Source: Psammoneis japonica (lineage: Eukaryota). From it: a stretch of DNA of 63,814 nucleotides. Position numbers and translations under genes: made by a program. Shown in pieces: positions 14,909 to 63,814 of the stretch; the first letter of the stretch is position 1; each line of letters begins with the position of its first letter. Where the stretch lies: NCBI GenBank assembly GCA_008632985.1, contig QPGO01000030.1, positions 1 through 63,814 on the forward strand. The letters run 5' to 3'. The notes beneath the pieces are model-generated. The model worked only from the letters and a program-made list of their open reading frames with translations. It ran no database searches and was not told the origin of the DNA.

Positions 14909-16159
14909 GAAAGCACCCCTAATATGTAACAAAAAATACAAGGTAGTGGCAGGCCCGGGAAAGATTGATGAAGCCCAAGTGCTGCTACTGTGATTCTTCC
15001 CAACAACACTCTACAATGTGGCTGCTCCACCTTAGTTTTTCCCGGCCGTGTGGTCCCATGCGGGTAGGTTGCTTAAGAGCCATCGTACATGCACCTCCGG
15101 CTGGCCAGCCGCGACCTTTAAACAACCGTTGAGATGGCGTTCCATTCACGGGTCCGTTGGCACACTGAATGCCTTGTCTGCATGAAGCTGGAAGATAGAA
15201 AATGGAAGTCTCACACCTGTTGGTGGCCACAGCAGTTCAGCCGTGGACACTTGAAAAAGCTCGATTCTCCAACTGCAGAAGCCAGAGGCTGAACCTTGGT
15301 CAGCCACAGATGATCAATTGTTTTGAAGTGTTTGCGCCAAGAATGACTCTGGTTCAGCAGAGAAGAGGGCAGCACCGTGCCATCTTTGCCACCACATTGC
15401 TGGCCTCAATGATGCCAGCTGCCATCAAGAAGATGCCCATTTCATAAAAGCATGCTTCAAATTCTTTTTGTCTCAATGGCCATCTCAACAAAAGAGAACT
15501 TGCTGCCTCACACTTCATTTCTCCTGCTGCCAGTGGCTTTGATCTTGCCAGCAACGGTGGCACAATGAGTGTGGCAGCACTTCATTTCAGGCCATTGACC
15601 TTCTTGAACAAAGCAGCCTGGCAGCATTTCAGTGCCATTGTTGCCTGCAGCAAATCATCCAAAAAAAGAGTCTGACAAAGATTTCACTGCTGCTCCAGCA
15701 GACCACCAAAACCCCCCAGGTTGTGCAAAAAGAAAAATCCAAGAGTGCAGCCACTTGTGGAGATTTGCTCTGCACTTCAGCCACAAAAGCCCAGCCACAA
15801 ACATGCTGTGCTGGTGCTGGAGTCAGCAGCAGTCACCCTCCTTGCTGTGCAAACACAGCAGGACTCACAAAAAAGTTGGCGATGCTGACTTTCTGGACAA
15901 ATTGGAAGTCAGGCTCCTCAGCAAAGTTTGTCTTTGCCCACCATTTGTCACCTGGCACTGCTGTCATTCCAGCAACACACTTCTGAACAGGCAGACAGAA
16001 GGGTTCTGTCAAACAACAGCCAGCCACTCAGCCAGATGAGAGCCAGGAGGCTCTGCACGCTGCAGGCTTCTTTCTTCCTGTGCAAGAAGGGTTTTTGTTG
16101 TTGAAGGTGCAGAGCATGCGCAATTTCTGAGGGAGACATTGAGCCATTTTCAAAAGTGT

Positions 16160-17205
16160 CACACCAGCTTCAGCTCCAGGTGAGGCGCGCATGGGCTCAA
16201 CTCCCACCACTGGCCAATTTTTGCATTTGGCGCAATGAACTTCTTCAAAATCATTTTTTCCTAAATCCAAGGGTGAGTGTGCAAAAACTTTTTTTTTTCA
16301 CACTCACCTTTCCATTTTTGAGACAATCAAATTTGAAGAAGTTCAATGTGCCAAACTGCACGCCAGAAAATTGGCGCCTCTTGTGTGATGGATTGCTCAT
16401 TGTCTGGGACTGGAACAGGCCATGAATGCCATCACATGGAAATGACAAAAGACTCATGATGGGGTTTTGTGCACATGAGGTGCCTGTTCTAGCTCCAGGC
16501 AATGCGCACAGGTTTGATTCCCATCATTTGCCCATTTTTGCATTTGGCACACTGCACTTTTTCAAAATCCGTTTTTTGCCAAATCGAAGGGTGAGTGTGC
16601 ACTTTGCACGTGTTTTTGGGTGCACTGAAGCATGCACGCAGACAAAAGGTCATTTTTGTCACGCCCTTTGTGACATTTAAAGGCTGCAACATGTCGCTGT
16701 GACACATTGACTCTTGTCAGTGGCTGTGTGTTGCACTCCTCCCCATGTGTCACGCGTCCACACGGCTCTTTGCTAACGTGCACTGACACTGCACGGTTTT
16801 GGCGGAACAGTGTGGGTGTGCATGAAGGAGCACACAGAACTGCACAGAGTTTTGCGCGTTCGACAGTGATCAACGTTGCTGCAGACAACTCCCACTCAGG
16901 GTTTCGAACCCCTGGCCTCCTGCCCAATGGTTGCGATGAACCACTCCGCTGTGAATTCACAGTGCAGCATGCATGCAGACAAAAGGTCATTTTTGTCACG
17001 CCCTTTGTGACATTTAAAGGCTGCAACACGTCGCCGTGATGCATCGACTCTTGTTGGCAGCTGTGCATTGCAGCACACTTGCCTTTCAATTTTTGAAACG
17101 ATCAAAATTGAAGAAGTTCAATGCACTGGGCTGTGCAGGAAATCAGCCTCTCTCCTCTCTCGTGATGGAATTCTCATCACCTGGAGCTGGAACAGGCCAT
17201 GAGAT
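16160..17205. repeat. Two diverged ~320-bp tandem, internally palindromic (foldback-like) units; the second is split by the TRIM
   Basis: 16213-16285 resembles 16531-16605. 16299-16360 resembles 17073-17135. gg(g/a)(a/g)ctggaacaggccatga occurs at ~16410 and ~17185. Hairpin ggtgagtgtg...cacactcacc. Confidence 0.6.
16626..17072 (-). mobile_element. TRIM-like non-autonomous LTR retroelement, copy 1, with internal tRNA-like sequence
   Basis: 110-bp direct repeats at 16626-16735 and 16963-17072, TSD GCAC on both sides, PPT complement ctcctcccc at 16736-16744. Confidence 0.9.
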
Positions 17206-17595
17206 GGGCACAGAGCGCAGCAGCTTTTGTCTCTTGCAAACACGAGGTGATTTGACTGTGCATGTGAGACCCCTCTCATCATCAGGAGTTGCTTCTTTGA
17301 AGTCCAAACACATTTGTTTGAGCCGACAATGGCATTGGGTTGCCTGGCAGGCACAGTGGGCCTCAAAGCAACAGGGAGTCACCTCAAATCTGTTGAAAGT
17401 TGAAGCTGTCCCGTCGCGCTCGTGCGCGCAAGCGCGGTGCATCTGATTCCCACTGACGACTCTGGCGAAATGGACATTTTTGCATGCTGCAACACACGTC
17501 CGTTGAAGACATTCATTTGCCCTTTCCTCACATTAAAATGTTCAGCATCACATGTTGCATCTTGAGTTTACGGTCACAACTCAACGGACAACCGA

Positions 17596-17740
17596 CTTTC
17601 AACAAAAAGTTGTTGAAAGTTAGATCTTTCAACAAAAAAGTTGTTGAAAGTCAGATCTTTCAACAAAAATCTGTTGAAAGTTAGATCTTTCAACAAAAAT
17701 CTGTTGAAAGTTGCATCTTTCAACAAAAATCTGTTGAAAG
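17596..17740. repeat. Palindromic minisatellite, 5 x ~30 bp (ctttcaacaaaaa(gt/tc)tgttgaaag + 6-bp linker)
   Basis: Read directly from the sequence. Confidence 0.95.
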
Positions 17741-18770
17741 CCGACATCGTTTTTAGGGTTGCGCTGCAGTCGGGCAACACAAAAGTCAAAGATCGTGACG
17801 AGAACAGCATGAGCGATGCATGCCTTGCCAAAGCCTGAAAGCATGGCGTGAAGTTGGCTCAGCAGCTCAGTGCTGGTTTGGTGGTTTTTAGCAGAAGCAG
17901 TTTGACAATTTATGGCGGCAGTTTCAAAGGTTGTGGCTGCAGCTTCAGAGTGTAAAGCACGGCAGTTTCAGAATTTTCGGCTGCAGCAGTTTCAGAATTG
18001 TCAATTTCTTGAAATCTGCCAGCAGTGGAGCACCTTCAATGGCTCCAAGTGAGCCGCCGTCCAATGTGCTTTGAACCAAGCAAAGCTCCCACCTGGCAGT
18101 GATCTGTCTCCGATCTCACCCAGTGCGTGGTCAGGCGCTGTCTACAGCTCCAAGCGAGAATCATCCCAGTGCCAAACCATTGGCTGCTCCATCCTCTGAG
18201 CCTGGCAATCCCATCTGCCGTTCCGAGTCTGGGTCCCAGCATGCTGCACATTGGGTGGTTTCATCCTCGGATGAAAGTGCCAAGTCATGAGCAACTCCGT
18301 CAGTCACACCGAGGTGTGGACACGGCTCAACACGTCACGTCTCATTGAAATCAACAGAGGACTTAGAAGTGAGAATGTTGGTGACAGCACCACTGAGAAT
18401 CGAGTGGCACTGGCCTGCATGCTTCGTGCGCACTGTCAAAAAAAATTGAAATTGCTTCAAGGTTTCAAACAAAACAGAAATCCACAATTCTCAATGACGC
18501 ACAATGGGACCAACCCAGAAGGATGCATTGTGCAATTGCTCCCAACAATGAAAAAAGAAATGGGGAAAATGGTGCAAGCATCATTGAGATGTCACGCCAT
18601 GAAGTGGACACCGTCTGCTCGCTTCATTGTGCTCGCTGCAGTTTGCTGAGTGTGGCAAAGTGCTGCAGCAAATGCTGCACTCAACGATGAACAAATGTCG
18701 GTCATGCAAACCTGTCTTTGATGACATCGCTTTTCCAATCAGATTTTCATGCCGACAAGTTTTCTGTTGA

Positions 18771-18933
18771 AGTTGTTGAAAGTTACGTCTTTCAACAAAA
18801 AGTTGTTGAAAGTTGCGTCTTTCAACGAAAAGTTGTTGAAAGTTGTGTCTTTCAACAAAAAGTTGTTGAAAGTCACAACTTTCAACAAAAAAGTGTTGAA
18901 AGTTAACGACTTTCAACAAAAAGTTGTTGAAAG
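18771..18933. repeat. Second array of the same palindromic minisatellite (5.5 units, same orientation)
   Basis: ctttcaacaaaaagttgttgaaag units with linkers ttacgt, ttgcgt, ttgtgt, tcacaa and ttaacga. Confidence 0.95.
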
Positions 18934-19634
18934 TTATTTGGCGATAAGCTGCAAAGCTGGAGAAATGAGCTCATTCCTTTGCAGAGTGCAATTGTTCATT
19001 GCACATGTGTGATGGGCAATGGGCTAAATTTTGTACAGTCCAATTCGCCAACAGTGTCGTAATGCGGACATTGCAAAATTTTATAAAGTTATTCAAGAAT
19101 GGATCATTTCAATCTGAGTCGTAGTTTCAACAACTCTGAGGCGACTCCCAGAGGGTGGTGGCAAAAATGAGCGCGTCGCCACCAATCAAGAACAAGCGCG
19201 CTCGACCATCCTTGCCGTATCGCGAAAATTTTGCAGGGGTGAACAAAGTATCAATTTGTCTTCATTTTTGATAGTAAATTTTGTATCGATTTTGAGATCA
19301 GAAAGTATTTTGAAACCTTTCGAAACATTAAGGGCACCAATATGTAAATATGCCAAATTCTCATAAATACCCTTTATCTCAACGGTCTTCTCGAGGTTTG
19401 GCGCGTATTTCAAGTCTATAAAGCAAGCTTCTGACATATTAATAAAGTCTATACAGTAATATTTGTCCTATCGCTGTTGAGCGTTACTTTTGAAAAATTT
19501 AGTCATAGCACTCGCAAATGCGCGGGATTCGCCACGCCGTCGTTGACACTGTATCTATGATACAGTACTCTACGACGACAAGCTACCCAGCCTCCCTCTC
19601 AAATAGAGAACATAGACCATGACCTCCTTTCGTC

Positions 19635-25860: not shown

Positions 25861-27099
25861 CACATGCTGTGTAGAAAGCACTCTTACATGTGTGAAACAA
25901 AAAAGAACACAACATGTGCTTCCACTCAAACCTGTGCAGAGACTCACGAAGACGAGCGCCGCTTCTGACATCATCTTGCGTTGAGTCGTGTTGTTGTGAT
26001 GATCCTCACAGCGACCCCGAGGCCTGCCCACAATGCACAGCATAGACTTGATCATGTGCAACTTGTGCCACCAACCCAGCTCAAACAAGACTTGAAATCA
26101 TGCCCCACACTGCTTTCCTCCACCAACTGTGCACTTGAGGCCAAGAACTCTCAACTGTGTTTGGCTTTCTTCGTCTCTAACATGTTTCCGTGCTCAACCA
26201 GAGCAATGATTGTCAATTGTTGAAAATTCCACACATCTGCCTGTTTTGTCCACCTGTCTTCTTGGTGAATGGATGCTCATGCTTGTCAGCAACAATTGTC
26301 AACTTTGAATTCACTCAATTGTTTTTTCTTGTTTTGAGCTGCCTGTTCTACATTGAGTCTGCATTGTTGTGAACTTGTTAAGTTTGCATGCAGTTCAACC
26401 ATTTTCTCTCCCATCGTCAGCTTGTTCTCTTCTGTCTTGCTTTGTTCATGCCACGTCTGTCCCTTTTTCCCCCTGCACACACCACAAGATGCATGCCGAC
26501 CTCAACTCCGACAAAGACAATGGTGCACCCTTGTCGCAATCCACTCTGTCCCGGTCAGATGTCTGACAACAACAATCAGTGTGCTCTCCAATGACATTTT
26601 CAGAGGTGTTCCCAGTGCTCTTCCTTCTTTTGTTTCCCCAGTGCTCTTCCTTCTTTTGTTGTGGCCTTGAGACGATGCATCTTCCTCCCCCCATTGCTCT
26701 CTGAGTGAGAACTCTGCCTTGTTCTCATTGGACGCATCTTTGCCTTCTGGCCAATCCCGCGATTCAAGCGCTGCAGGATTGCTGTTCCTGTCTCTTGATG
26801 ATTTTGATCCATCCTCTCTCTTTCCTGATTGCAGTGATCATGAGTGTCAACCCCCCACTCACGGTGACCCCTCCTCCATTGAATTGCTTTTGGAGTGTTC
26901 CTTTGAGGACACATCCACGATTTTCATGCTGCGCCGGAGCCTCCTGACAAACTCAGTGCTGGCAGTCCTGCCCAAGCTCTCAGCGGTGATCACATTTTTT
27001 ATGATGATGTTCTTCTCTTCAAGGAGGAGTTTGATGTGCTCTCAACACAACATTCCGTGTCATCCTCTGACATGGATGATGAGGCATTGCATCATTTTG

Positions 27100-27645
27100 A
27101 TGCACTTGAGTTGGAGGAGATGGAAGAAGCTCAACTGTTGCACCCTCCCTGCATTCAAGAAACCAATGCCACCAAGAAGCTTCATCCAGTGGAGGAAGAG
27201 TTGGTCATGATGATGAAGAAGCACCATCTTTCCCACGGTTTGTACAAGGCTTTCCTTTCCTGGGCTAAACGTGCCAAGGAGAGTGACTGTGAGTGCAAGT
27301 CTCTGTCCCATTCTACAGCCTTGCAATGCATGAAAGCCAAGCATTTTGATTTTGTTGGGCCAGAGCCCATTTGCTCCACAGTGAATTTGGGTCTTGATTT
27401 CACCCCAATGCATGTGTGCCATTTTTTCCTTTCTCCATCATGTGAGAAGGGTGTTTCATGATCCACAGGTTGTCCAGTCTTGTCAGTGGACAGACAACAA
27501 GAAGCACTGCTCCCAAATGAACGAATGCATTTGCAACTCTCTCAACACTGGCAACTGGTGGAAGCAAGCCGAGAATGATCTCAAATCTTCCCTTGCTGAA
27601 CTCAGCAACAACTGTCCATCTGGGTCACACCGTGTTTGCCCAGTC
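27100..27645 (+). pseudogene. Plavaka-like DNA transposase N-terminal relic
   Basis: Frameshifted translation ...GLYKAFLSWAKRA...HVCH/FSFLHHVRRVFHDPQV...ICNSLNTGNWWKQAE...RVCPV resembles the Plavaka 'l.tg.ww...piil' region and stops abruptly at ~27645. Confidence 0.55.
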
Positions 27646-29734
27646 AGGGAGGTCTCCAAGATTTGGCACCACAAGGAGAGGCAGCAGTGACAATGACAGT
27701 TGACATGTCTGGCTTGCTCACACAAGATGCATGGCTGCAATTTGCTGTGTTCCAGTGGGGCAGCAAGGGAGATGCATCAGACTCTGGCACATCCACCTGC
27801 ACCACCAAACATGTCGTCATTGTCAACCATAGAATGCTCTTGCCCCTCAGTCTCATCTTCCTCCTGTGCATCTGTGTCTGCTTGTTCTTCATGCTTGGAG
27901 GGTGGGAAAAGGATTTGTTTGGCTGGGGGAAGTGGGTTTCTGTGGCCAGTTCCAATGGTGCATTCCAAAAAATCAAGAGTGGGTCCAACGGGGACATCCA
28001 TTGCAAGAGAAACTGAACCTGCAGTTGCGGCAACAGCTGGCAGATTTGGTTCCTCTGAATCCAAATTGTTGTCAGAGGAAACAAAGGCAAGCCTGTGCCT
28101 GGAGTGGGGGTTGCTGGGATCATTCAGAGTCCCATCCAGTGCATGGTCAGAGGTTGCAACAATGTCGCAACACTTTGTGAAATGGGCAACATCCTGGGCA
28201 GCATGCTTCTGTTTCAATTTTGCCAATGGGACCTTGGCAAGGCAATGATTGCACAAATGGGAGTGTTCCTGAGAAACGTCCTCATTGGCTGCATCACTGC
28301 TTTTGGGCGCAACTGGCACATCCTCCATGTTGCACAAGCCATCAATCAGATCATCCTTGTGGTGCTGGAAGATGCATGTGAGGAGACACTTTACAGTGAT
28401 CAACTGTGTGAGTGCCTCCTGAACTGGACTGTCCATGCAGTGGGTCACAGTTGACCCATCCTTCTTGGTGTAAAAATCATTGACTTTTTGGTGGCTCTGT
28501 TTGCAGTCATTCATTGGCGTTCGCGCATGACAGAGACATGCAACGGCAGCTGGAGGCAAGAAAAACTCTGCCCACAGAGACAGCACCAGTCTCTCAAAGT
28601 GGCAGGTGATGCACAGATGGGTGGCTTTGCGTCAGTGTGTGCAACGGCTCTGTTTTCCTTGACAGCCAGTTCAACTCTGGTGGGACGGTCATTGAACAAG
28701 TTGACAGGAGTGCACTGACCTGTTGGAGATTCATGAACCACAGAGCCATCATGAGAGACAGAGAGAAAAGTCCAAAATGAGGGGAAGACAGTTTGCATCA
28801 CCTGGGTTGCCATGATTGGGTCCGCACACACTGCCACATTTCTCAAAAGTGCTGTCCAGGGCTGAGTGAAACAAGGCACTGCCGGCCTTGGGTGGCAGAA
28901 TGTGTTCAATTTGTGTGCGGATGTGGGAAGCAAAGGTGTTTTGTTCTTGATTCATGAAGTTGAGAGCCGACGGGCCAACCTTCTCCCAAAACTTTCAAAA
29001 CAAACTTCAGGTTTGTTCAACCATTTGTTGTCTGACCTCTCCTTGTCATTTTTTGGATTTTTTGGGAAGACATGTTCCCAAACCATCAGGGCAAAGGGAC
29101 ATTCAGAGTTGACACCAGCATCCAGGAGAGAGTGGCAATTCATGGTGTTGCCGATCTCTTGTTTGGATGGAAAACCCAGAGAGAAAAGAAGCGAACAACC
29201 AACTTTTGAGTTGCCAACCTTCTTCACAAGGTTGTTCTCCAAATTTGTCATTTCGCTGGCATGAAGGGGCTGTTTCTGGGCTTTCTGGAGTGAGGACATG
29301 GTCTTTTTTTTGCTGCGGCAATTTCTTGTGCCACAGTCCTTGTGCTTCTTCTGCAGTTTCTTGCACATCTTTTTGTTTTGGTTTTTGTGCAGGCCATGCA
29401 TCCGCCAGCAAAACAAAAGCCACACCCTGCAATCTTCACCGGACATTTCATGGGGTTGATGGCAAAAACGGCAAGATGCTCAGAGGCTTTGAGCAGATTC
29501 GGAGTCTTGCAAGAAGGGATTTTGTCACGCTCATTGAGAAATTCAACATCCTCTTTTTGATTGAGTGGGGAACAGTTCTCAGGCACATCATCAGAGGAGT
29601 CAACACTTCTTTGTTGGTGGAGGCAAGATTGGCGGCAGCAGCTGCAAGGTTGGCAGCAGGAGGAGCAGCCACGGATGGAGAGCCTTGTTGATGCTGAGGT
29701 CAGTCCCTGGTGCCTTGCCTGGGGGGTGGTCCAG

Positions 29735-30127
29735 CAGTGTTTCCCAAATGTGCATTTTTGGCTGGACCAAATTTGCATTTTTGTTGAACCAAAACACTTT
29801 TGTTGACCAAGTTGCCAGACCGACCAAATCAATTTGGTCGACCAAATTGACATTTGCGAAATCTCGACCAAATTCATTTCGTGCACATTTCCACACAAAT
29901 GATGCTGACACAGCTTCTACAAAATTTGCATGGCATGCAGACATGCATGTTTTCCAACTTTCCAGCCAACGGAAGATTCCTGCCAAAAGTGCGCCAAATT
30001 TCCCCGACCAAAATGACGTTTTCGGGAAACAAAATCATTTTGGTTGCGAGCTTCAAATTTGTCAACAAATTTGGTTTGACCAAAATGCCAATTTGGTCCA
30101 ACCAAAATGCACACTCGGGGAACACTG
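29735..30127. mobile_element. hAT-like MITE with ~55-bp imperfect TIRs
   Basis: Left cagtgtttcccaaatgtgcatttttggctggaccaaatttgc matches the reverse complement of right gccaatttggtccaaccaaaatgcacactcggggaacactg. Internal gaccaaa/tttggtc motif repeats. No clear TSD. Confidence 0.7.
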
Positions 30128-33100
30128 GTGGAAGGAGATTGGCCTGCTGTTCAAGCTGAACGAGCAGCAGCACCGCCACAACCTCCACAATGGCCACTGG
30201 TGCCACTGGTGCTGGGGGAAGTGTTGTGGCCAGCAGCTGGTGGGTTCATTTTCTTCCTTTTTCTTGGCGGCATGGTTGATGAGGAGCCAAATGGAAAGAA
30301 TGCAGGAGAATGAAGTCCCAGAGAAGGCAAAAATGTGAAATTGTCAATCTTGACAAGAGCAGTTTAATGTGACAATTTGACAAGTGTGGAGTGCACAATG
30401 GACACTGATGAACAGACAACTCATCAAGGTTCATTCAAAAATTTTCAAAACTTTGCATCACAAAAAAAAGATTGAATTTTAAAACAAAATGGGTGCAGAA
30501 AAAGAGACAGATGGGGAGTCAATGGAGATGGAGGTTCACCGTCAGGCTGAAAACACGAATTGTCCCTCCCTCACAAGACACAGAAAATGAAAAGTCAAAA
30601 TGATGAGCCTGGAGAGAGACAGTGACAGGCACGGCATGGCGGCTTGAACAGGATTAAATGCAAGACACACCAAAGGTGAGAACGACAAAACAAGTGGCGA
30701 GTGCATGGAGTCAGGACACGCAACCCAAACAACTGACACTTGCACGCACCTTTGCAAGCAGACGTCAAGACAAGTGCAATGGGAGCAGTGCCAAAGGACG
30801 AAGCAGCAATGGAAGATGGGCAGCAGGGACCAGTGATTAGGTGAGCTGAAGCAGCAAGTGAGCCAAGATTGCAGGACAAATGTGCAACAGCCAATCGTTG
30901 GCACAGCTCCATCTTCATTTGCAGGCAATGCTTTGAGCCAACAAAACAGGAGGGATGCAAAGATTGATTGTTGGAGGGGCTGTGTCATTGCCTGATGCAG
31001 ATGCACTTGGAGAGAGCAAGAGCGGTGTCAAGGGAGGAAACGGGGGACGAACTCATCACGCAGGTGGTGTCGGGACTGCAAAAGACAACAGGTGCTGGCA
31101 AATGCAGGAGATGGTCAAGAATGGGATGATGGGGACATTGTCAAGCATCTGGAACAGAAACAAATTGACAAGACATTTAGAAATTGTCATTGTTGCAAAT
31201 GAGCAATGCAAGGATGGTGTTGCAAAAATGTGGTTGTTGAGATCAAAACAGGAGCAAATGACAAGTTTCGCTGACCATCATTTCCCGCTTGGAAGGTCAG
31301 TTTAATTCTGGACAGATGCAAAATCAATGTTGAAATGTGCAGGAACACAGAATTGTCAAGAATGCATGCAGAAAAAGTGCAAAATCCATCAAGCATTAAA
31401 TCCCACTTGGAATGTTGAAAAAATGTTAAAATTGCTTCATGTGTGATTGACAAGCAGTTGTCAAGAACACAGGATTCTTAACAAGCAAATGTGAGTTCTG
31501 AACAAGAGCCACAATGTTTTCCAGATGTTCATGGTGAGCTCTCCTCTTGCTGGTGCTTGTGCCAGCCAACATCACAGCTGCTCTCGTCCTCTCCCACTCT
31601 GCCCCACACTCTTCTGCTTGTCAGGGATGTCCTCAGAGTGTGACTCAGTGTGCTTTTCAGCAGTGCTCCTCTGTTTTTTGTCTCCTTGCCACCACGCCCA
31701 TGTTCTCTTCCAGAGCATTTTGGCGCATTTCCTGCCACTCAAAAAGCCAGCTGGGCAGCCTTGTTGCCCCCATGTTTTCACCCCAATCATCTGGGGGCAA
31801 CCCCTCTCACCCTGCCCTCTGCTTTGCACAGTGACAGCTGCAGGTTCTTGATCTTGTTTCTTTTGATTTTTCTCAGGGCCAACACCTCCTCTCGCCACCA
31901 CTGCCTGCCCCAGGTTTGCCTGCTTCTTTGTCAAAACAAGAAGCCCCAGCATTGCTCCCAGTTGCTGGCATCAACTTTTTTTCAGCTGAACACAAACACT
32001 TTGTTTGGCAGCTGACAAAAAGGTTGTTGTGTGCCACAACAGCCCTGCTCCACTCATGCAGCAAAATGTGCTTAGCGCTCCCTCTGACAGCACAAACCAA
32101 AGAAGGGCTCCTTTGTCAAGAACCAGTGCAGTTCCCTTGCAGCGCTGTGCTTGCACTGGTGGGGCAAGATGTTGCTCCAAAATGAGCACACTCTAAAAGA
32201 CCAAAAGCCTTTTCTCACAACATGTTTGCATGAACCACCAGCACAGAGCCTGGCAAATCCAGGCAAGGCAACTTAAAGGAGTTGCCATGCATGTCAGACA
32301 TGACATGCTCACATCCTTTCTTTCCAATGTCCACAATGATGCCAACCCTTTTGTCATTCATGCAGATCCACTGGGCATGAGTCAGCGCATCTTTCCAGAT
32401 GCTCCTGCAGTGTCCAAGAGGTTCTTGGCTGGCAATGAAGTGTGGTCACATGGTTTCGAGCACACCCACTCACAAGAAACAACTGCAATCAGCTGTCAAT
32501 CCTGCCAGCCACATGAAACTTTAAACTTTGTTGTGCTGAGCACAAGGCAACAGTGGATTGCCAACTCTTCATCTTCTGCCAGCACATCTGCAAGAGAGAG
32601 CAACAATCTGCTTCTGTTGCCTGCTGGTCATCATGCCTGAGATCATCAGAGCATGAATTGCAGCAATTGAGGCTGCCTGTCTCACAGTGGTTTTTGACCT
32701 TTTCACAGGTGACAAAAAAGTGCTGCAACAGATGGATGGTTGTGCACATGGTGACAATGTGTGAACTGCAATGGACAAAGTTTTGTTGCCATGGTGTCTG
32801 ACCCTTCTCCTGTGAGAGCACTGTTTTGCTGTGAAACAGCCACCCAATTTCCCCATGAGAGTGCCCACCCTCTTTCCCTGCAGAACCTGACGATCAAAAG
32901 CATTTTCATTTCAACGTTGCACATTGACACTCATGTTTCATGTGAATGATGCGATGCATTGTGTTTGCAGTTTGTCAATGAATGCAAATTTGCTGCTTTG
33001 CCATGAGCTGTTCCACGTTTTCAACGGGCGCAGTTCCTTTGCCAGACTTCTGTGACTTCTTGTTCACTTTTGTCATCTTTGCTTGAACTGTCTCCTTCTT

Positions 33101-36100
33101 TGTTGTCTTCATTGTCTCTTCCTTTTCCTGTTCTCTCCTCCATGGCTGTTGTCCTTGTCATTGCCAGAAATCTCCACTGTGGCTTTTTTTGTCTCCTGCT
33201 GTGCCGGTGTTTTCTTGGTTTTAGCTTCCTTGCCCTTTTCATCACTTTTCTTCTTGTTGTTGGCACTGCACCCTGTGTTGAGCTGTGCACCTGGCTCACT
33301 TGCCCTGTTTTCCTTTGCTGCCTCATGCAGCTTGCTGAATTGCTGCACTCCTTCATCTTTCCACAAAATGCGCTGTCTCTTGACAGGTCAGTGTACAAGG
33401 GTGCTGGGGTTTCTTCCTTCTCCTTGTTGTTTCTGTCCTCATCTCCCTCTTGAATCTTCTTGTCCTTCATGGCCTTGCACTCCTGATTTTCTGGTGGTTT
33501 TCCAATGTCAACAGCCCCAGAGCCTTGTTCCTTGCTGCAGTTGGCTCTGTCACCTTGGCGTTTCTGGTCTTCACCATCTTTCTCTGCACAGGAGCTCTCA
33601 ATGAATTTTAGAACATTGTTGCAGAACCATGTGTGTGCTTCCTTGTTGGCCCATTTCTCACACACAATGGTGTTCACAGTCTTGTGCTCCAAGTTGGCAG
33701 GAATGGTTTTTCAGCATTGCTGCTCTTCTTTCTCTCCTTTTTTGCTTTCTTGTTGCTCTTTTCTTTTGCCCACAGATTTCCTTGGCTTCTTCTTCTTCTG
33801 TCAGCATGACTGGTGCTGGTGCAGATGAGTGCAATGTCAGCAGCATCATTTCCATTGCCTTGTTGGCAATGTGTCCCACAGCACTCACCACTCATTGCAC
33901 TCTTCATCATTGGCTGCATTGCAGTGCTCGTTTTCATGTTGATTGCATTGAGGCTGCACTTTTTTGCCTGGTCTTCCCACTTCCTTGCCCAGTCTTGCTT
34001 GCTGAAATTGCCACTGGCTGTGTTCTTGCATGTTGGCCATGAGACACCTTTCCATCACTCAGCATGTGTGCCTTGACAAGGAATCCTGCTTTCAAAGACA
34101 GCTCCATCCTGGCCACCTCTTTGATCTCTCTCCTGAGAGATTGGTTTGGTGGCTCATTGGCCAATGGTTGTTGCTTCCTTTTCTTCTTCCCAGTTGCCTT
34201 CACAGGTTGCAGTTTGTTGTGGACTTGTGTTGCAGCAAACGCATTGCATGTTGGGCTCTGATGAGGAAGCCCGGCATTGTTGATCCAAACCTTTTTTTCA
34301 TGCTGTGTTTGTGATGCTCTCACCAATGCTTTGCATGTCTTGACTGCCACCCAGCAAAATTAACAAATGAAGAGTTTTGATGTCAAGCAACAAATCTGCT
34401 GCTGTTTGCATGGTTTGTCAATGGCCAGCAATTGAACATTCAGCTCAAACTAATCATTTAAAACTGTCTGCAGACATTTTTGAATTTAATTTTTTGCCTC
34501 ATGTCCACATCATGTAAAATTGGCCAAAGTGCACACACAAAAATTTTTGTCTGCAAAAGTTTTTGTTTGTGGAATGAACAAATTGCACACAGCCTTCCTC
34601 ATTTTCACAGCCTGTTTTCAATGTGGTGCAACAAGTTTTTCCAGTCCACTGTCTTGCAAGCCTTGTCCAAAAGGACCATGCAAAAACCGCTTGCACCATC
34701 CATCGCAAGAACAACCAGTCATGTCATCAAGTGCATTTGTCACATCACAAACGCACTTCCACAAAATGCTTCACATGACTGTGACAGAGTCTGTCTTTCT
34801 TTTCTTTACATTCAAATTTGCAACGGCATCTTCTTGCTTGTTTTCACAGTCATGCTGGTGATCATGATGCAGCCTCTCTTTCCCAGATCATCTTCAATGT
34901 CCAACCATTGACCATCTTGGGAGCCAATGTGAAGAGCTCCATCCTGTTGCAGATCCAAATGTCTTTGGGCTTTGCATGAATTGATCCACAGTGGAAAATG
35001 ACGCCAGCTTCCTGGCATCAAAGTAATGCCTTTTTTGTCCATTGCAAGTCCACAAGCACCTCCAGAGCTGCCACCCATGAGGTGTCCACACTCTCCATTG
35101 TCATTCATTCCACAGGCAGGCAAGTGCCCATCCTTGAAATCTTGTTCATCTCATGAATCCCTTTTGTCCATGGCCAATCATGTGTCTTCCCCCTTGACCC
35201 AGCGGCACACTCATCTCTCAAGTGCTCATCATCTCCATGGTTTTCACAATGCAAACTGCACACTTCCCTTGCCTTTTCTGGCGGGTTTTGACAATGTTCC
35301 AAAACCCTGGTTTTGTGTGTGTTCCTTGCACATTCAACAATCACATTTTCCCAGTTTGAGTCATCATGGATGGAGAACACAGGTGTGGCAGCAGACATGT
35401 GCACCTGTTTTGTCTCCAAGACATGCCTTCATGGTGTCCTCCTTGGACCCAACTTCATCCAACTCAAAAACATGACAAGAAAGCTGTTGACAAATGTGCG
35501 CTGCTCTTTCTGGGTCATGACCTTCCAAAAAATTTTTGGGAACCAACAAATTGCATCATTTTTCTCATGTTTGATGTGATGCATGACTGTTTTGGTGACA
35601 AAGCATGTCCCATGAAGGTCATGTGCTTGGCTGTTGATCAGGGCAAGGAGACTGGTGCACTTCAAAAAATGCAAACAAGGCTTGCCTGTGAGTGGATCAT
35701 TGGGGTCCTTGCTGGCAAGACTTGGCCATTGCCTTGATGTTGTGGCAAAGGGTGTGACAATGATTCCTCTCCTTTCCTGTCTCTCCAGGTGTCAAGGAGA
35801 AGAACTTGTTGTCAAAGAACAAGTTCACCTTTTTTGCTGGATCTCTTCATTGCCCAACAAGAGTCATGATGCAAGACCACATGTCTGGACATCCAAGAAA
35901 TTTCCTTGCATTGTTGTTGGTGTGGACAGCTTCTGCAACACAGGGAACATGGCAAAGCTTTGGTTCATGGCAAAGGAAGGGAGGCACTGAGAATTCCAGA
36001 GAGGGCACCAAATTCATTCAATCCACACACTGCTTTTAGAGGCACACATTGCAGCTGTGCTTTTGAGCTTGGGTCCAAACAGCTTCACTCCAAAACCATC

Positions 36101-39100
36101 AGCAAAGTGTTCCATTTGATCAAAATTAGCATGTCATCATCAAAGTTGAATGAGGGATCAGGGTCACCTCATTGGCCAACAGGGCAAAGTTGTTGACTGC
36201 CATGGCTGGCTGAATGCACATGAATTGCAACAGCACATGCACTTGCCATTTGATTTTTGGGGAGAGGGTGTGCTGTTGTGAAGTGTGCACAAAATTGCGC
36301 TTGTAAAAAAGGTGCTAAAAACACAGTGGACAATTGGGCACAGAAATCTGGAATCAAGAAATGAGGGCAAGTGTGCACATGATGATGACTTGGGTGGGCA
36401 TGGACAAGATGCCAGTGTGCACAATGACACGTGCACAGGTGTGGAAAAAGTAAAAACCATGTTCAGCTGGAAAGCATCAAAAGAAAAGCCATCCATTTGT
36501 CACAAAAAACGCATGAAATGAAAAGCAAATTGAACATCAAATGCAACTCATTAAAGCTTTTGTCAGAAAAGGCAACAAAACTTCAGATGAAACACAAAAA
36601 TCAAAAGCATCACAAAAACCACTGCTGCTGACATTTTTTGCATTGAAGTGGTTGCAACTTTGTCAAAAAGTGCAAAAATTCACAAAGAAAAGCAGATGCC
36701 CCATGTTGCCCCTCTGATGATGGCTTGGCTTGTCTGCAGACTTTGTGCCTCCTGCACTTCATCTGACCAGGTTTTTGGCCTTTACTTCACTCAACCTTGT
36801 TGTGCTTCAGGTGTTTGCAAGTTTGCTCCAATTTGTCAACCTGCTTGGTGTGCAAAATGGACCACACCTTTTTCTTTCACACTGTGAGCTTTTTTGTGGC
36901 ACTCAGTCAGCTTGTGTTTTCTTCAGCCTTGATGTCATGAGGCTTGACCTGGGCATGTCTTTGTTGCAAATGCTGGCACCTCTTTCACAGTCATGCTCAT
37001 CAAGGGAGATGTCAACATCATGAGCATTGGCTCACAGCCATTTTCCTGCATCATCTTGCTTGACTTTTCTGTGTGAGATTGACTTGTTTTGTGTTGCTGT
37101 GCAAGCTGCAACTTTCTTGCTTCTCTCCTTTTTCTCTCAGCAGTTTGCACACAGATTGTGCAGAGCACTTGCTCTTTTTAAAAGTGAGCATTGCACCACT
37201 TGTGTGCCCTGCATGAGAAAATGCCACAAATGTTGCATTTTTGGGATGGTGGTGTGTGGTCCTTTCAGGCAGTCTTTCTTTGGCCAGTTGGCAAGTGCAC
37301 CCATTGACATTTTTTGTGCCTGACAGCTTTGAAAATCTGCACCTTGAAAGAAAACAAGTGGCTTTGTTTGTTTTTGTGCATCCCCAAATTTTGCACTTTG
37401 CTCTTCAAATAAACCCTGTTTGTTGTCACATTTGTGAAGAATGTGACCAACCACATCAATGGCCACTTAGAACAGCCACAAATGTGCTGTGGGCAGTGGG
37501 TTTCTTCACAACAGGTGGGAGCAATGTTGGGGAAAGACACTGCACAGAAAACAGGTCATTTCTGGTGTCTTCCAGAGCACGTCAAAAAGGTGTCTTTTGT
37601 TTCAAGGTGTTTGGGTTTTTCTCTTTTTGAGGGTCTTTCTTTTTGAGTTTTTTTTGTGAGGTGCAGCAGCTCTGGTGCTGAGCATGATTTGCACTGCCTG
37701 GCAAGACTGTGGCAGTCCATTAAATTTTCACAAGTGCTGCCATTGGCAAGTGCTGCATCTCATTCCTTGATGACTCTGCAGCTCTTGCAATGGGGAGAGC
37801 AGGCATGCATTTTGAGGCCAAATCAGGGGAGCAACAGGCATTGTTTGCAGGGACATGCAAAAATGGCTGCATCCAATGGGTGTCACACACAGCACCAGTT
37901 TGAAGATGACAGGAAGGAGATGGGCTGGTGTCCTTGGCAAATGTCATGTGGTCATGCAGCAAATCAAGTGGATTGCAAAAAAGATGCAAACATTCCTGAG
38001 TGACTGGGGTGCTGCAGACATTGTTGTCATTTGGACAAGCAGTGCCATGTGGCATGGGAAGCACCCCATGAGATGGACCAGGTGGATCCACTGAGAACTC
38101 AAAAGTCACCCTCACATCTTGTTAGAGCAGCCCTCCCTGACTGTAAATGGTGGAGGTTCAATGTGCCACTTGGCTGCTGTTTCTTTGTTCTTGTTTGCCA
38201 TTTGCTCATCACTTGTGACACATGCTTGTCTCTTGTCTGCTGTTTCACCTGACCAGACCAAGAGAGTCCTCAAGCCAGGACAAAGAGCTGTGAAGAACTT
38301 GCACACATGCTGCTTTTCTTGTGTGCACACTTGCTTGTTGTCTGCCACATCTCTTTCTTGCTTTGCTGCTCTCTCTTCTCCTCCCATGGACACACACCTT
38401 TCTCACCTCTCTTTCCCTCCCTTTGTTTTGGGAAATGTGGCATGCTTTTTTACCAGCAGCACATTTGTGCTCTTTTTTCCTCTGAGAGGGTGAAAGTTTC
38501 TTGTCACCCACCACCAGCGCTGTTGAAAGGTGCACAGCAGTGAGAGGCAAGTTCCAGCAAGTGCATTAAGGCAGCCAGCAGTGGTCAGCAAGGGACAGGG
38601 ACACACAACTGTCTCTCAAGCTCAGACATTTGTGCACATGACAACAACAAAATCAACAAGCATCAAAGGACATGCCTTTGCACAGGAGCCTCTTGTTTGG
38701 AGCTGCTGACAAAGCACTGCAGCAGGTTGCTTCTGAGACATTTGCTCTGCAAATGGCTGCAAGTGTGCCCCTTCCTGTCCGAAACAAAGAACTCTTGAAT
38801 GGCTGTTCATCGCAAAGAGAGTTTTTGGACATTCCTGCAAAGCAACAAATCAAGAGGTGCTCCTGGTGCCATTCATTTGTGTGGCACTTTAAAAAAATGG
38901 GGTGCACATCTGCAGTGCATCTGCTGATCTGATGCCTTTTGTTGTTTGCCTTTTTTTCAAGGCACTCTTGTGAGCAGCACAGAATTGCAGTGGCAGGTGG
39001 CAGGGCAGATCAGCAGCTTTTGTGAAAAGGAAGTGCCAATCAGTTTGCTTGGTGGCATGTGAGCCATTGGTCAAGAGTTGACAGAGTGCACTGGCTTTAA

Positions 39101-40714
39101 CATGATGCAACAAATGCAGTGTCATCTTGTCAGAGTGACACAGACCCCACTTCCCATCAGCTGTTGAGATCCAACGTGCCACCATTGGCCAAGATTCTGA
39201 ACAGTTTGTTGCTGTTGCAACTGTTGCAATCCCAAGACAAAATGAGCTTGTGCAGCGGGTTTATTTGGGTGGGTGCCAGCTCCAGGTGCTGCCCAGTCAG
39301 TGACTCTTTTTCGTTTTTGTGCTTAAAATGGTGGTCTGGAAATGCAGGAGCACCATCCTGGGCTTTGGACAGCCACAGGGTCAGAGAACTCACAGGAAGC
39401 AGTGCTGCACTGTGCTTTGGCTGCTGCACACCTGTCAAAGTGTCCAACACAAGGCCTTTGCCGCAAAGGGCCACTCCAGGAAGCCCTTGTGGAAAGTGCA
39501 ATGAGGCAGGAGGCCTTCAATGCAGGGGTGCTTGAGGTTCTTGTGACTTTGTCTTGAATTCCTTTGGAGTGCCTTGTCTGCAAATGTCAAAGAATGTTCC
39601 TTGAGCTGCGTCTTGGCAAAGCCCCCCTCAGCATTGTGCCTTGAGCAAGCCAAGGCATGGCCCTGGAAAGCCCTTGTCAATCTCTGCTGCACACTTTGTG
39701 CGAGCCCACATTTTGGCTTCATGAATCTGAAAGCAAGACATTCTCAATGCTGATTTCATCCATGTGAATTTCACCTCAAGGCCATGATGTTCTGTGGGAT
39801 GCTATGGGGCAGCTTCAAATGTCCATGGGTGGCTCTTTTGGTGCTCTGCCAGTGTGAACACAGAGAGCAATCTTTAGCTGGGCTACTTTTGACAGCTTCC
39901 AAACACAAGTGCTTGGGTTTTCTTCTTTGGCTGCAAATCTTGAAATTCCCACTCTGTGTGATGTCATGCAAGTCCTCAACAGCAGCAGGACAGCTCTCTT
40001 TTGGTCATCCCATCACAACAAATGACAGCACGGCTGAGCACTTTCTCCAAGATGATGCTGACAAACACCAGACTGCCAGCCTCAGCCAGTCTGGAACAAA
40101 TCATGTCATCATTCTTGGCCAGACAGGTGCCCAATGCAAGGGCATCATTGTTTGACTGGACACATGGACAAGTGTGCCATTGTTGTCAGTGGTGCAGACA
40201 AGCTCATTGGCAGAGTTCTTTTTGACTTGGAACATGAGGTTGGGCACACACAGGTTGCCATCCAGACACTCTGGATTTGTCCAAGTCACCCAAGCTGTTC
40301 ACTAAATTCTCAATGTGCATGACCACATTTAGCTGCCACATGGCCAGCCACCAGCCAACCTTCCAAGAAAGTGCTGACAACAGCCCCAACCATTTCTGGC
40401 AAAGCAGGTGCCAAGGATGCAATCACCGCAGCATTGTGCATCATCAGCACCGCCCTTGTGTCGTTGTTGGCAGCCGGCACTTGACTTGACTTCCTCACAT
40501 CTTTGAAGTGTTTTGGCTGGTTGTTGAGCTTGCTGTCTCACTCTCCAGGGGGCACTGGTGTGCAAAAGCGCCAGGTGCAAAAGCTGAGGAGCATGAAAAT
40601 GAAAAAGAGGATTGGATTTGCAGCCATTGTCCTTGCACAGTTTCCACCACAACAAGAAGATGAGCACCAACAAGCTTTGGTGCACAACGGGCATTGTCTT
40701 GTTCCCTGGCAATG

Positions 40715-41154
40715 TGCAACACACAGCCACTGACAAGAGCCAATGCATCACGGCGACGTGTTGCAGCCTTTAAATGTCACAAAGGGCGTGACAAAAATGA
40801 CCTTTTGTCTGCATGCATGCTGCACTGTGAATTCACAGCGGAGTGGTTCATCTCGCAACCATTGGGCAGGAGGCCAGGGGTTCGAAACCCTGAGTGGGAG
40901 TTGTCTGCAGCAACGTTGATCACTGTCGAACGCGTAAAACTCTGTGCAGTTCTGTGTGTTCCTTCGCACGCACCCACACTGTTCCGGCAAAACCGTGCAG
41001 TGTCAGCACACGTGAGCGTGGGTCGCGTGATGCATGGGGAGGAGTGCAACACACAGCTGCCAACAAGAGTCAATGCATCACGGCGACGTGTTGCAGCCTT
41101 TAAATGTCACAAAGGGCATGACAAAAATGACCTTTTGTCTGCACGCATGCTGCA
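40715..41154 (+). mobile_element. TRIM-like non-autonomous LTR retroelement, copy 2
   Basis: 110-bp LTRs at 40715-40824 and 41045-41154 (TG...CA), TSD AATG on both sides, PPT ggggaggag directly before the 3' LTR. Confidence 0.92.
40830..40900 (+). ncRNA. tRNA-like (Pol III type-2 promoter) sequence inside the TRIM; homolog at ~16890-16957 on the minus strand
   Basis: A-box-like agcggagtggtt and B-box ggttcgaaacc within a caggg/ccctg T-arm stem. The anticodon arm is not convincing. Confidence 0.6.
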
Positions 41155-42882
41155 AATGCCCTTTTCTTCGCTGTTGTTGCCTCTTTGATTGCCCCCAGCA
41201 ACAAGGAACAACAGCACACTGGTGCTGAGGGCAACCACACTGTGGCCAGGCCATGTGTGAGGAAAAAGGCCAGCTGCCCATGCTGCGTGTCCACTGCAGG
41301 ATTCCACAGAATCTCGTGAAAGCCACAGAAGCTGTTGCGCCCCCCCCCCACTTGTGTGTTGCTCTCTAACCCCCTTCAATGTGCCCTGTGTGCCAGAACA
41401 AAATCTGAGCTCCTTTCTCAGCAGGCAGTGGATTCTGCGTGCCTGTGTGTGGGATGCTGAGCAGCTTTCTTGAGAGCCATCAAAGGGTGCTAAGGATGGA
41501 GGGTGGTGGCTGTCAAACAAGAGCATGGAGTTGTCAGATGCCCTGGTGCATGCTTGTCAATGTGAGGAGCAGTGGCCTCATGGTTGCCGCCTCCCTGGGA
41601 TGACAACCAGCTTGCCTGTTGCATCTGCTGAGGTCATCTGCCAAGAGTGCTTCAATGTTGTGATGCACCCCACACAGCAAAACAGCGCTCATTTTGCAAG
41701 TCTTGTCAAAGGCATGGGATACATGGCAGAGTCCAGGAAAAGAGCTGTGAGATTGAGCCTCACCTTTCTGATGATCACCATCTCACTCTTGCCCACCCCC
41801 AAAAAACAGCAAGCTGTCTCCAACCAAAATTTGAGAAAAAGGCAGAGGGTCGTGCACAGAACAGCCTGTTGAACTTTCAGAACATGGCATTGTTGCAACA
41901 CTTGCAAAACCCAGTTGTGTCATCAGAAGCATGTCAAGCTCAACATGATTGAGTGTGTCAACAACCTGCGCACTGCCTGTTTTTTGCCGCACAGACAGCT
42001 GCTCTCTGCGCTGGTGTGTGCGCTCGGTCTCATCCAAAGAAAGTGTGTGCTTCACTTGTTCTCCACAAGCACAATGCATCTTGGAATGTGGCCAGTGTGA
42101 GATTGCATCCAGCCCCAAAAATCTTTGCTCTTGTTGCTCTGTGCACAGCTCTGCTGCTCCTGGCACACCTGGCTGGCACAAAAAGGGCAGATGTGCAGCA
42201 CTGCTGCAGCCTGGCTCCTGCCGCTGGCAGAGCAAGCTCAGCTGCAAGCAACACTTTGTGCTTGATGTGCACAGACAGCAACGTGCTTGGTCTGCACAGC
42301 AGCGATGCACTTGGTCTCCAACTGCAATGGTTGACAACCACCAAAGTCAAGGCCATTGGAGGGACCAACATTTTGGAGTGCTTGTGTGCAGGAACGTGCT
42401 CGCACACGAGAGTTTTGTGCTAAGCTGTCGGGATGTCATTATATATTCTTATATATATATTTTATTCTAACATCGGTTGGCGCCACATTGAGTACACAAA
42501 GAAGGATACTGAATAGTGACATATTGTGAAAAGATACCAAATCTCGATTTATAACCTAAAGATACTCATAGAGCATTAGCAAGCACAACCGTTACGGTAC
42601 ATACACATACGGTATATTTTTTGGAAATTTGCTCTTGCGCCACGAAAGAGAGGATCGTGAAAATGCATATACACATATAAAAATATGTATAGAGTCAAAT
42701 AACCCACGATTGGCGACGCATTGCGAAGAATCATCATCATACCGGTAGAAGGAGGACCTCCTAACATCAACAGGACACGCCACACCTCATCGTCCTACCG
42801 GTACCTATCGTTATCGTTGCTGTTTAGTTTTGTGTGATCGTAGGTATTGTAACAGGGAACATAACGGGGAGTATAAGGCACC

Positions 42883-61677: not shown

Positions 61678-62089
61678 GATGATTGATAGTAGTAAGACGA
61701 AGACGATGCTTGATCAAGTGGTCAACTTTCGAATTGTGAGTGGTTCAGCGTGATTGACGTTTCGACGGCTTTCTCGGATGGGATTGCTTCGACATACTAT
61801 CTCTACGTAGCCTCTACGAACAAACGATGTATCGTCAAAACCATCCTCAATCACGAAAGAAGAGCGGGCGGGCAGGTTTGTACACAATATCTATAGTAAA
61901 ATGTTCATACCATGTCCTACGCTGCTTTTTGCGCAAACTTCATAAACACGCATTTTAGTTAAATTCATATTATCGTTGATAAGAAATAAATTTCAAGTTC
62001 ATGGGAACTAGGCGGAAAAACTAAACTTTTTCTCTCATCTCGCTCAACGGACGGACGGAAGTGTCCATCCGTCGGTCGGTCAGTTTAGT

Positions 62090-63814
62090 GTCACCATCAG
62101 TTCCCATGTGTTCTTTCTTGCAGGACTGCAACTGTCCTTAACAAAACCGTTGTATGACCTCAAAACTTTTGGCTTTCACCACACCTCACTCATGCATCTT
62201 GCTCTTTGCTGTGAGGGCATTGAACACAGTGCAGCAGGCAGCCAGGCTGGCACCACCAAGAAAGCGCTGGCCAAAACAATGGAGCGAGCCTTTTGTGGCA
62301 CACCACATGCACTGTGCTCGGAGAAGGAGTGCAGACAAAAGTGGAGCAAATCACAAAAAGCAAAAAGTGGAAAATCATGAGATGAGATTTGCTTTGGGAT
62401 TTTGGGTTTCTCCAAATGAGCTCTCAATGCCCCAAGGCATTCTTTGCACTGCTTCCACAGACCAAAGGCCTTTCGGAGAATCCGGCAGTGATGCAGATTG
62501 TCTGGATGCAATCAATTGACACCTTGCGTGTCAACATGGTCTGTTGATCAATTTGCACTTTTTGACATCCAACCAAGTCTGTGTGATTGACCTGCCCTTT
62601 GTGCGCACACTTTCGGCTGTGGTGTGGTGTGCCGTTGACATGTGCGAGACAATGCACAGCTGCGAACGGGCATGTTTCTTTCCACTTGGCAGCACATGCT
62701 GCACATGTTCTTGTGTGCAAAGCTTGAGAGTCGAAAGGCAAGTCTGGCATTTTGCATGGAAAGATGGTCCTGAGCCCCCTGTTCCTCGTGCGTTCATCAT
62801 CACCATCACAAAGGATGGTTTTTGTGCTTTTCCAGCGAGGGATGACTTTGGTTTTTTTTTGAACAAACGTGGCACCAGGTGCAAAAACCAGCACATGCTC
62901 TCCCAGCATGCTGACAAACCACTTCCCTTCTGTCCCAGGGAGTGCTGCAGATCATTTCTTGTCATTCTGTGCAGCTTGGAGCATCACCATCATGCAGCGG
63001 CCATTCATGGAAAGGTCTTTGATGGTTTGTTTTGAGTCAAGTGAGCATGCTGCACACAGCCCTCTTTCCCCTTTGTGAGCTCAGATGGACAAGCAACAAC
63101 TTCCAAGAAAGCAGTGCTCGCTTCATGCCAGATGCAACTTTTGTGCGCTTTTGAGGTTCAACATGGAAGAGTCTGATGAGACAGTTGGTGTGAAGCAGAC
63201 ACCCCAACCAGATGGCCAGGTGTCAGAGTCTGTCTCTCAAGCCAAAAGAGTGGCGCAGGTGAGTCACACAACAAAGACAACACCCAAGTCAGCCAAGAGG
63301 GTCAAGAAGCTCTTGCAGCAGAGCAAGGTGCAGAAGGTTTGGATGACAGCTCCTGTGATGTGCAAGGTGGAGACATGCTTGCCCAGTTGCTGCAGAAGCA
63401 AAGTGGGGAATTTCTTGTTGAGAAAAGCCATCAGCAGCTGGGAGAAGATGGACTGGATGCCAAGGTGATGCGCGAGTGGGGCATCTTGGACTCTGACAAG
63501 CTGCTTTTTGAATCTTCTGACCATCACAAGAACATGATGCTCTTCATCTGGAGAAAGAGATGAGGCCAATGTGGCTCTGAGATGCCTTGGGAAGAAACAA
63601 TGAACAGGTCGTGCACATCAGCAACAGCTCATTGTTCTTGCAGCTCTCCTTGCAATGGCAAAAAACATGGTCTTTGATGAAGGAACCCAGGCACAGGCAC
63701 CCTCTAAAAGCGCGCTGACCACAACAAACTTGACTTTCTGCAGGCCATCCAGAGGGGACACTGGGATGGGCTTTTTCTGTGTGGCTTGAGTGCGGCAGTC
63801 ACAACAGCAGTGGC
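62090..63814. mobile_element. Block C: TpA-depleted degenerate repeat region running off the window end
   Basis: Same TA/CG-poor, TG/CA-rich signature and Cys/His-rich ORF noise as blocks A and B. Confidence 0.75.

Follow-up and report, generated by a model that had tools for sequence, protein, structure and literature searches.

Loss of TpA to TpG and CpA on either strand in transposon-rich domains of a diatom genome

Fungal RIP makes TA from CA and TG by dinucleotide-specific transitions that fall on both strands of repeats, arise after insertion and spill over at the edges. A second process has been described in the rhizarian Bigelowiella natans, where integrated viral DNA undergoes TpA hypermutation and A>G/T>C changes yield TpG or CpA according to strand (Mettrop et al., bioRxiv 10.64898/2026.01.13.699255). 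The preprint portrays this process as regional, sparing host DNA and able to affect single-copy DNA, with Pfam families related to transposable elements enriched among TpA-poor genes and a TpA observed/expected ratio of 0.45 in a giant-virus region; the signature was measured de novo in clonal lines, at a rate raised about 1000-fold and active in only some lines, and ADAT2 was proposed, unproven, as the enzyme (10.64898/2026.01.13.699255). As presented there, three questions were left open: whether the process is a quirk of one alga, whether transposons are reached and which enzyme acts. In our literature search, which covered subscription journals thinly, only this preprint matched the signature and no diatom report was found; the preprint text available to us makes no mention of diatoms.

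The diatom Psammoneis japonica, a stramenopile, is a second lineage with this TpA hypermutation, which accordingly has a 2026 precedent in print. Three features are common to both: the changes are almost only A:T>G:C transitions at TpA (here 424 of 1,767 TA against 38 of 8,762 other adenines), both strands are hit (TG/CA 41/37 in a Copia triplet and 472/368 in TRIM copies), and domains of selfish DNA, with Copia, TRIM and TIR copies, are affected while genes are spared. In contrast to B. natans, LTR, TRIM and TIR elements here stand at about 90-95% saturation, the same domains also lose CpG, the rate comes from comparing copies rather than from measurement in lines, and a 3′ context and same-strand bystander changes are seen that the preprint's main text does not report. 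New here are a freshly inserted TRIM, an age series, the 3′ preference and the micro-patches, all described below. The process shares with RIP the traits given above, but its chemistry is opposite: TA is removed, CA>TA occurs at only 2 of 2,900 sites, and there is no net gain of TA. Nor did we see any sign of pairing dependence, of a sexual-stage window or of long same-strand runs. Diatom DNMT4 is related to RID/DMTA according to the source consulted (PMC9998398), and the genome holds genes identified as C5-methyltransferases (L165, L166 and L172).

We analysed a stretch of 63,814 nucleotides (contig QPGO01000030.1, forward strand), called the window throughout, whose dinucleotide profile delimits three domains:
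15200..19020, no strand, TA- and CG-depleted domain holding the arrays
26000..42420, no strand, second TA- and CG-depleted domain, TA observed/expected 0.02-0.08, with a sharp edge at 42421-42440
62000..63814, no strand, third TA-depleted domain, continuing past the window end

Within these domains TA falls to 0.02-0.09 of expectation, CG is lowered, and TG and CA are raised to 1.7-1.9; genic window DNA keeps TA at 0.3-1.0. The TA ratio between depleted (21.8 kb) and genic (39.1 kb) DNA is 0.10, a partly circular figure since the blocks were drawn from the TA profile itself, and GC content is equal in the two. The stretch at about 15050-16180 is TA-depleted yet has no second copy that we could find in the genome, a search that can miss diverged copies, and no Pfam family was detected in six frames of 14951-16152. 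No RNA record was listed for 15000-21000. A short-read contig from run X1, which may be the window's own sample, matches 15000-16548 with 0 differences, so misassembly does not account for the composition there. For the gamma-tubulin-complex protein encoded in the window, the closest named relatives come from diatoms.

Several other features of the window were recorded. Paralogous Patched/sterol-sensing-domain genes, 70-91% alike, lie at 19623-23544 and about 42900-46721, each beginning just beyond the edge of a TA-depleted domain, and a tandem pair of paralogous genes, 70-80% alike in DNA, occupies 8074-9573 and 10098-11576 on the minus strand. Intergenic TA-rich tracts at about 9500-10000, 47000-48000 and 50500-51000, with up to 62 TA per 500 bp and low-complexity TAG/TAC/CTC words, are spared.

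The direction of change is read most clearly from a short element present twice in the window:
16626..17072, plus strand, TRIM-like element copy 1, with two 109-bp LTRs
40715..41154, minus strand, TRIM-like element copy 2

A TRIM is a terminal-repeat retrotransposon in miniature, with short LTRs ending in TG...CA, a short non-coding interior and a target duplication; this element has 109-bp LTRs, a total length of about 445 bp and CAAG on both sides of a young copy. The differences that the earlier note had reported between TRIM copies (ttttacgcg against ttttgcgcg, tgcaaTGcac against tgcaaCAcac) are present between these two. We then compared 30 copies, those most like the window copy among 40 scored out of 322 candidates (31 were aligned and one of them removed as a twin), and 544 of 616 departures from the column majority proved to be transitions in pyrimidine-purine columns, which make up 260 of the 447 columns. 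The young copy, L185, carries 35 TA in 445 bp between flanking kilobases with only 3 and 1 TA, and its LTRs agree at 108 of 109 bases, the sole difference being TA versus CA; it is a new insertion into an old mutated domain. Measured against it, and leaving out four columns private to it, 958 TA sites in the 30 older copies read TG at 472, CA at 368, TA at 107, CG at 6 and otherwise at 5. The forward change TA>TG/CA thus stands at 840 of 958 and the reverse at 0 of 2,009, a zero that is partly built in because the reference was selected as all-TA. A degenerate LTR pattern gave 459 matches; among the first 100 listed, 3 have TA at all five sites, two of them being the LTRs of one element, the young copy L185. 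Sister LTRs disagree as TG versus CA at 93 of 253 site pairs. Since LTRs are identical at insertion, these sites must have mutated afterwards, and since CG is so rare at them the inserted state was TA.

Other aspects of the TRIM copies merit mention. In one (L186, G000:C12) TA is retained over about 180 bp spanning most of the first LTR while the remainder is converted, reflecting either local protection or recent conversion from a young copy. The interior (about 16885-16920 and 40860-40895) holds a tRNA-like hairpin, highly conserved among copies, which we take to resemble the polymerase III B box motif. Pieces of another repeat lie on either side of the first window copy, at about 16190-16600 and 17074-17210, into which the TRIM apparently inserted.

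Copia elements give the same polarity. At 96 TA common to two members of a Copia triplet the third reads TG at 41, CA at 37, TA at 14, CG at 2 and otherwise at 2, against 1 change to TA at 348 TG/CA sites, and the three members carry YTDD, CTDD and HTDD at the catalytic YxDD motif. On the branch leading to L074, 25 CA/TG positions read TA; these apparent reversals are probably parallel hits in the other two copies, L076 being itself partly mutated. About 105 bases beside the reverse-transcriptase match of L074 (G000:C160) come from a different short repeat, one of high copy number with 152 candidates. A second Copia family, sampled in 28 copies, shows TA loss rising from 0% to 98% with TG and CA about equal, and reverse changes number 0-7 per copy among 253-504 sites. 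One copy (L122) has turned 56 of its 152 TA into TG and 58 into CA, about 76% lost, at 3.8% divergence and with 0 transversions. Outside proteins agree: a young copy retains all nine tyrosine columns that are at least 80% conserved in 120 outside homologues (a tenth was set aside, being Phe in this family), old copies mostly have Cys or His (or R) there, and conserved Cys and His columns do not turn into Tyr. The four Copia homologues that bear a species name are from diatoms. Searches beyond this genome, which favour intact copies, returned 0 of 80 related metagenome Copia loci with TA observed/expected below 0.3 and 0 of 120 outside proteins in which Cys/His replaces the conserved tyrosine in more than one column.

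These results bear out the earlier note's proposal that an ancestral TA was resolved independently on either strand. Polarity, taken from young copies, LTR pairs and outgroup proteins, places TA at the root, not TG or CA with TA derived, and the all-TA TRIM, the discordant sister LTRs, the Copia triplet, the age series and the outgroup proteins all point the same way. The CG>TG/CA path that it also named is real and slower, at 19 of 108 sites in the Copia triplet, 85 of 688 in the TRIM copies and 39 of 2,099 (CG>TG) in young Copia copies; it most likely represents ordinary 5-methylcytosine deamination in the same domains.

In six young, heavily mutated Copia copies TA>TG was found at 424 of 1,767 sites (24.0%), compared with AA>AG at 21 of 2,862 (0.73%), CA at 11 of 2,889 and GA at 6 of 3,011; transversions at the A of TA number 3 of 427, and the TA mutation rate is 0.250 at synonymous and 0.256 at non-synonymous sites. 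The base after A matters: in nine copies loss is 37% before C, 29% before T, 20% before G and 9% before A, and the order C/T>G>A recurs in a separate count. This explains why TTAA and TTAG/CTAA persist in the window domains, where tetranucleotide survival is 0.83 for TTAA, 0.36 for TTAG/CTAA and 0.00-0.13 for other TA contexts. Some TRIM sites break the 4-mer rule seen in Copia (a TTAT site reads CA in 22 copies and TG in 7; one TTAA site is kept in 28 of 30 copies and another mutated in 30 of 30), which means that sequence farther out or DNA shape matters too. Hits within Copia copies are regional, with gradients and shared boundaries. In five independent copies (L119, L120, L121, L123 and L125) TA loss ceases near one place, about 2400-3300 of L104 within the 3′ portion of the frame, where 1/14, 0/10 and 0/12 sites are hit, which suggests a protected zone fixed by sequence in this family.

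Individual events are 1-3 bases wide, an adenine 1 or 2 bases away sometimes being changed with the target on the same strand. Of 20 consecutive pairs at TATA, 17 became TGTG or CACA, a count that older copies bring to 21 of 30, and a hand count of TATA outcomes in the first 100 of the 459 LTR matches gave TGTG 56, CACA 23, CATG 8, TGCA 7 and other 6, with an odds ratio of 23 and same-strand outcomes in 79 of 94. In the six young Copia copies bystander A>G at −2 accompanied 8 of 155 TA>TG changes, compared with 0 of 126 TA>CA changes and 0 of 208 retained TA, and at +1 the values were 3/32, 0/77 and 0/268; these counts are small, the offsets carry no multiple-test correction and the copies may share history. 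The TRIM copies show an effect at +1 as well (26 of 170 versus 9 of 269), in a set where several other offsets rise too. From 3 to 400 bases no strand coordination was seen: across five distance bins the same-strand fraction stays at 0.44-0.51, and the observed value was also attained in 45 of 300 shuffles. A processive enzyme or lesion segregation, with the long-range coordination that it implies, was rejected for this distance range.

The linkers that first drew attention to the process belong to two minisatellite arrays inside a DNA transposon:
17375..19148, plus strand, non-autonomous TIR DNA transposon of 1,774 bp, recognized by its TIR ends and flanks, a unit found at 14 loci and holding both arrays
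17372..17374, plus strand, candidate target-site duplication CAG, left, from flank comparison between copies
17375..17398, plus strand, left terminal inverted repeat, 20 of 24 bases matching the right end, its inner half resembling the array unit
17596..17740, plus strand, left subterminal array, 4.8 x 30 bp, near-palindromic unit, linkers ttagat/tcagat/ttagat/ttgcat
18770..18936, plus strand, right subterminal array, 5.5 x 30 bp, linkers ttacgt/ttgcgt/ttgtgt/tcacaa/ttaacga
19025..19122, no strand, TA-retaining tip of the element, at the edge of the mutated domain and adjoining a gene
19125..19148, minus strand, right terminal inverted repeat, a 24-bp end that pairs with the left one
19149..19151, plus strand, candidate target-site duplication CAG, right, from flank comparison between copies

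Array bounds and the 30-bp period were taken from TRF. The exact 30-bp unit occurs at 46 places on 14 contigs in a genome search, mostly as paired arrays 1-2 kb apart. Because the array pairs sit inside an element with 24-bp inverted ends, they represent subterminal repeats of a DNA transposon, a non-autonomous one; this membership adds to the earlier note, and the units may serve as protein-binding sites. The eight linkers listed in that note read as it had given them, with TA, TG and CA alternating at one site: TTACGT (18783), TTGCGT (18813), TTGTGT (18843) and TCACAA (18873) on the right, and TTAGAT (17620), TCAGAT (17651), TTAGAT (17681) and TTGCAT (17711) on the left; the right array has a further linker, TTAACGA (18903). 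Its description of them as homologous holds for the TA site alone; the left (ttagat/ttacat) and right (ttacgt/ttacga) linkers are distinct unit types, and comparison with other loci derives ttgcat from ttacat and tcacaa from a ttacga-type unit. Across 10 non-redundant loci (4 of the 14 were left out as twins, and the script's counts include two or three non-linker matches) the site reads TA 27, CA 1 and TG 1 in ttaga-type linkers and TA 22, TG 26, CA 18 and CG 1 in the remaining types. The ttaga context is slow, most ttagat linkers resisting mutation with TA kept in 27 of 29, and some arrays have expanded recently, which biases the linkers as a record; arrays of at least 18 near-identical units also indicate that tandem units can be homogenised. 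As evidence of direction, then, the linkers pointed the right way, although eight of them taken alone would equally permit a CG root or a RIP-like TG/CA>TA change. They amount to five to eight samples of the TA>TG/CA process from within a TIR element, and the record they give is genuine though minor. Four contigs (L063, L064, L069 and L070) carry one region at 99% identity in which left-array units vary from 9 to 20, the array length being either unstable or misassembled among them.

Among six non-redundant copies of the TIR element with both ends, four have CWG on both flanks and two are mismatched, and no empty insertion site was seen. No transposase was found inside the window copy, a six-frame Pfam search of 17750-18762 gave no domain above the cut-off, and none of the 14 loci holds an unmutated copy. 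In the last 175 bp of the element the window copy has 7 TA against 0-5 in eight other aligned copies, and it alone among those compared has a TA-rich right flank. NuwaI DNA transposons of the PHIS superfamily are described, mainly from animals, with short TIRs and 3-bp CWG target duplications (PMC4482050). The element here shares the short TIRs and, in 4 of 6 copies, the CWG duplication, but its window copy is without a transposase and its host is a diatom.

We hold it as nearly certain that in transposon-rich domains A:T>G:C change falls almost only at TpA, on either strand and after insertion, that it outpaces CpG decay by a wide margin, and that it goes on until about 90-95% of TA has been lost. 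As to cause, chromatin-targeted TpA mutation by a DNA adenine deaminase is the explanation that we favour, with modest confidence, as a whole; for its enzyme to be a member of the TadA/ADAT family, or an undetected relative, recruited to silenced chromatin, we see about an even chance. Such a deaminase would be recruited to silenced chromatin, open a few bases at a T-A step and convert adenine to hypoxanthine, which replication would fix as G, with targeting by chromatin domain instead of repeat pairing. What speaks for an ADAT/TadA-type enzyme is that A>G is its sole product and that U is required at −1, in keeping with TpA here; the literature consulted reports this requirement for ADAT editing, and at +1 a preference for A or G in the mRNA editing of fungal Tad2/Tad3 (PMC11156358). 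The parallel with ADAT2/ADAT3 (Tad2/Tad3) and TadA is incomplete, in that their natural substrates are RNA loops and the +1 preference here is for C/T. The genome has ADAT2-like (L181) and TadA-like genes, and ADAT2 and TadA are housekeeping genes. The second exon of L181 has Asn in the motif region linked to DNA editing, which is non-discriminating as human ADAT2 carries Asn at that position too. Genome searches returned only ordinary deaminase genes (9 and 5 matches) and no expanded or unusual family.

The chief rival, which we consider unlikely but far from negligible, is error-prone short-patch synthesis, in which an iota-like (or eta-like) polymerase fills 1-3-base gaps in silenced chromatin and places G opposite template T, mostly right after template A. 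The genome encodes an iota-like gene (L273, best PDB matches to polymerase iota at E 2e-26 versus 2e-14 for kappa), an eta-like gene (L276) and another, L274, that we take from its motifs to be eta-like. Same-strand bystanders within 1-2 bases suit a short patch equally well, and among classes other than TA, AA>AG ranks first (0.73%, the others 0.20-0.38%). The spectrum argues otherwise: TA exceeds AA about 33:1, with only 3 of 427 transversions at the A of TA, and polymerase eta in antibody hypermutation shows about 2:1 TA:AA (its WA motif) with many transversions, so eta-type WA-motif hypermutation was rejected. Opposite T, human iota incorporates G in preference to A, and its processivity is low, but the account available gives no context rule confining it to sites after T (PMC3031609). 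A patch begun by repair of 5-methylcytosine should follow CG sites, and TA loss does not rise beside them (59 of 99 within 3 bases, 64 of 74 at 9-16 and 49 of 79 beyond 16, with no monotonic trend).

It is improbable that the modified base is thymine, oxidised at TpA to 5-hydroxymethyl- or 5-formyluracil and mispairing with G to give T>C. By sequence A>G on one strand is T>C on the other, and the context reads equally well as purine-T-A. Formyluracil also yields transversions, however, and these are nearly absent here; the Tet_JBP profile found no match in the genome, although its control was silent too.

GC-biased gene conversion, or selection against TA, would account for the net AT>GC change, yet it is very hard to reconcile with an effect on one dinucleotide only, with equal synonymous and non-synonymous rates and with the same GC content in depleted and genic DNA. 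Editing of an RNA or cDNA intermediate during retrotransposition, ADAR-like or by reverse-transcriptase error, retains hardly any credence: A>G after U is what RNA adenosine deaminases are reported to prefer (10.64898/2026.01.13.699255; PMC11156358), but strand symmetry and LTR discordance refute it, TG and CA arising about equally and sister LTRs disagreeing, and in addition the TIR element and a stretch without a second copy are affected while a fresh insertion is unedited. A reversed direction at TA-type sites (RIP-like CA/TG>TA, or CG>TG/CA with TA second), which the eight linkers, the 25 apparent reversals on one Copia branch and the several C5-methyltransferase genes might have favoured, is just as remote, refuted by the Copia triplet, the age series, the fresh TRIM and the outgroup proteins: the TA-richest copies are the youngest, outside homologues have Tyr where old copies have Cys/His, CG stands at 6 of 958 TA-type sites, and the repeats are TA-poor, not TA-rich.

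If DNA adenine deamination is the cause, the process would be a mirror image of fungal RIP carried out by a different enzyme, and a natural DNA adenine editor would interest both the genome-defence and the base-editing fields. The loss of conserved tyrosines may point to a role in defence. More tentatively, SAR protists as distant as diatoms and chlorarachniophytes might share a chromatin-guided defence mutator, a natural DNA adenine base editor (or a polymerase-iota patch system), that erases about 95% of TA in every transposon class by hits 1-3 bases wide and destroys conserved tyrosines and the TA-rich target sites of further elements. To the questions left by the preprint this genome brings a second lineage near saturation, three transposon classes and copies of every age, and the direction, context profile and event size are constraints that candidate enzymes must match. 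In practice, ages from LTR divergence and protein searches are both seriously distorted for these repeats, three quarters of TA being lost within 4% divergence.

Two further observations concern enzymes encoded in the genome. One gene (L180, G000:C79) fuses a zinc deaminase domain to a 2-oxoglutarate/Fe(II) oxygenase; it probably acts in purine metabolism and stays among the deaminase candidates. Several copies of a C5 DNA-methyltransferase gene (L169, L170, L171 and L175; G000:C301 and C297) lie within TA-depleted DNA, are themselves converted and are possibly transposon-borne.
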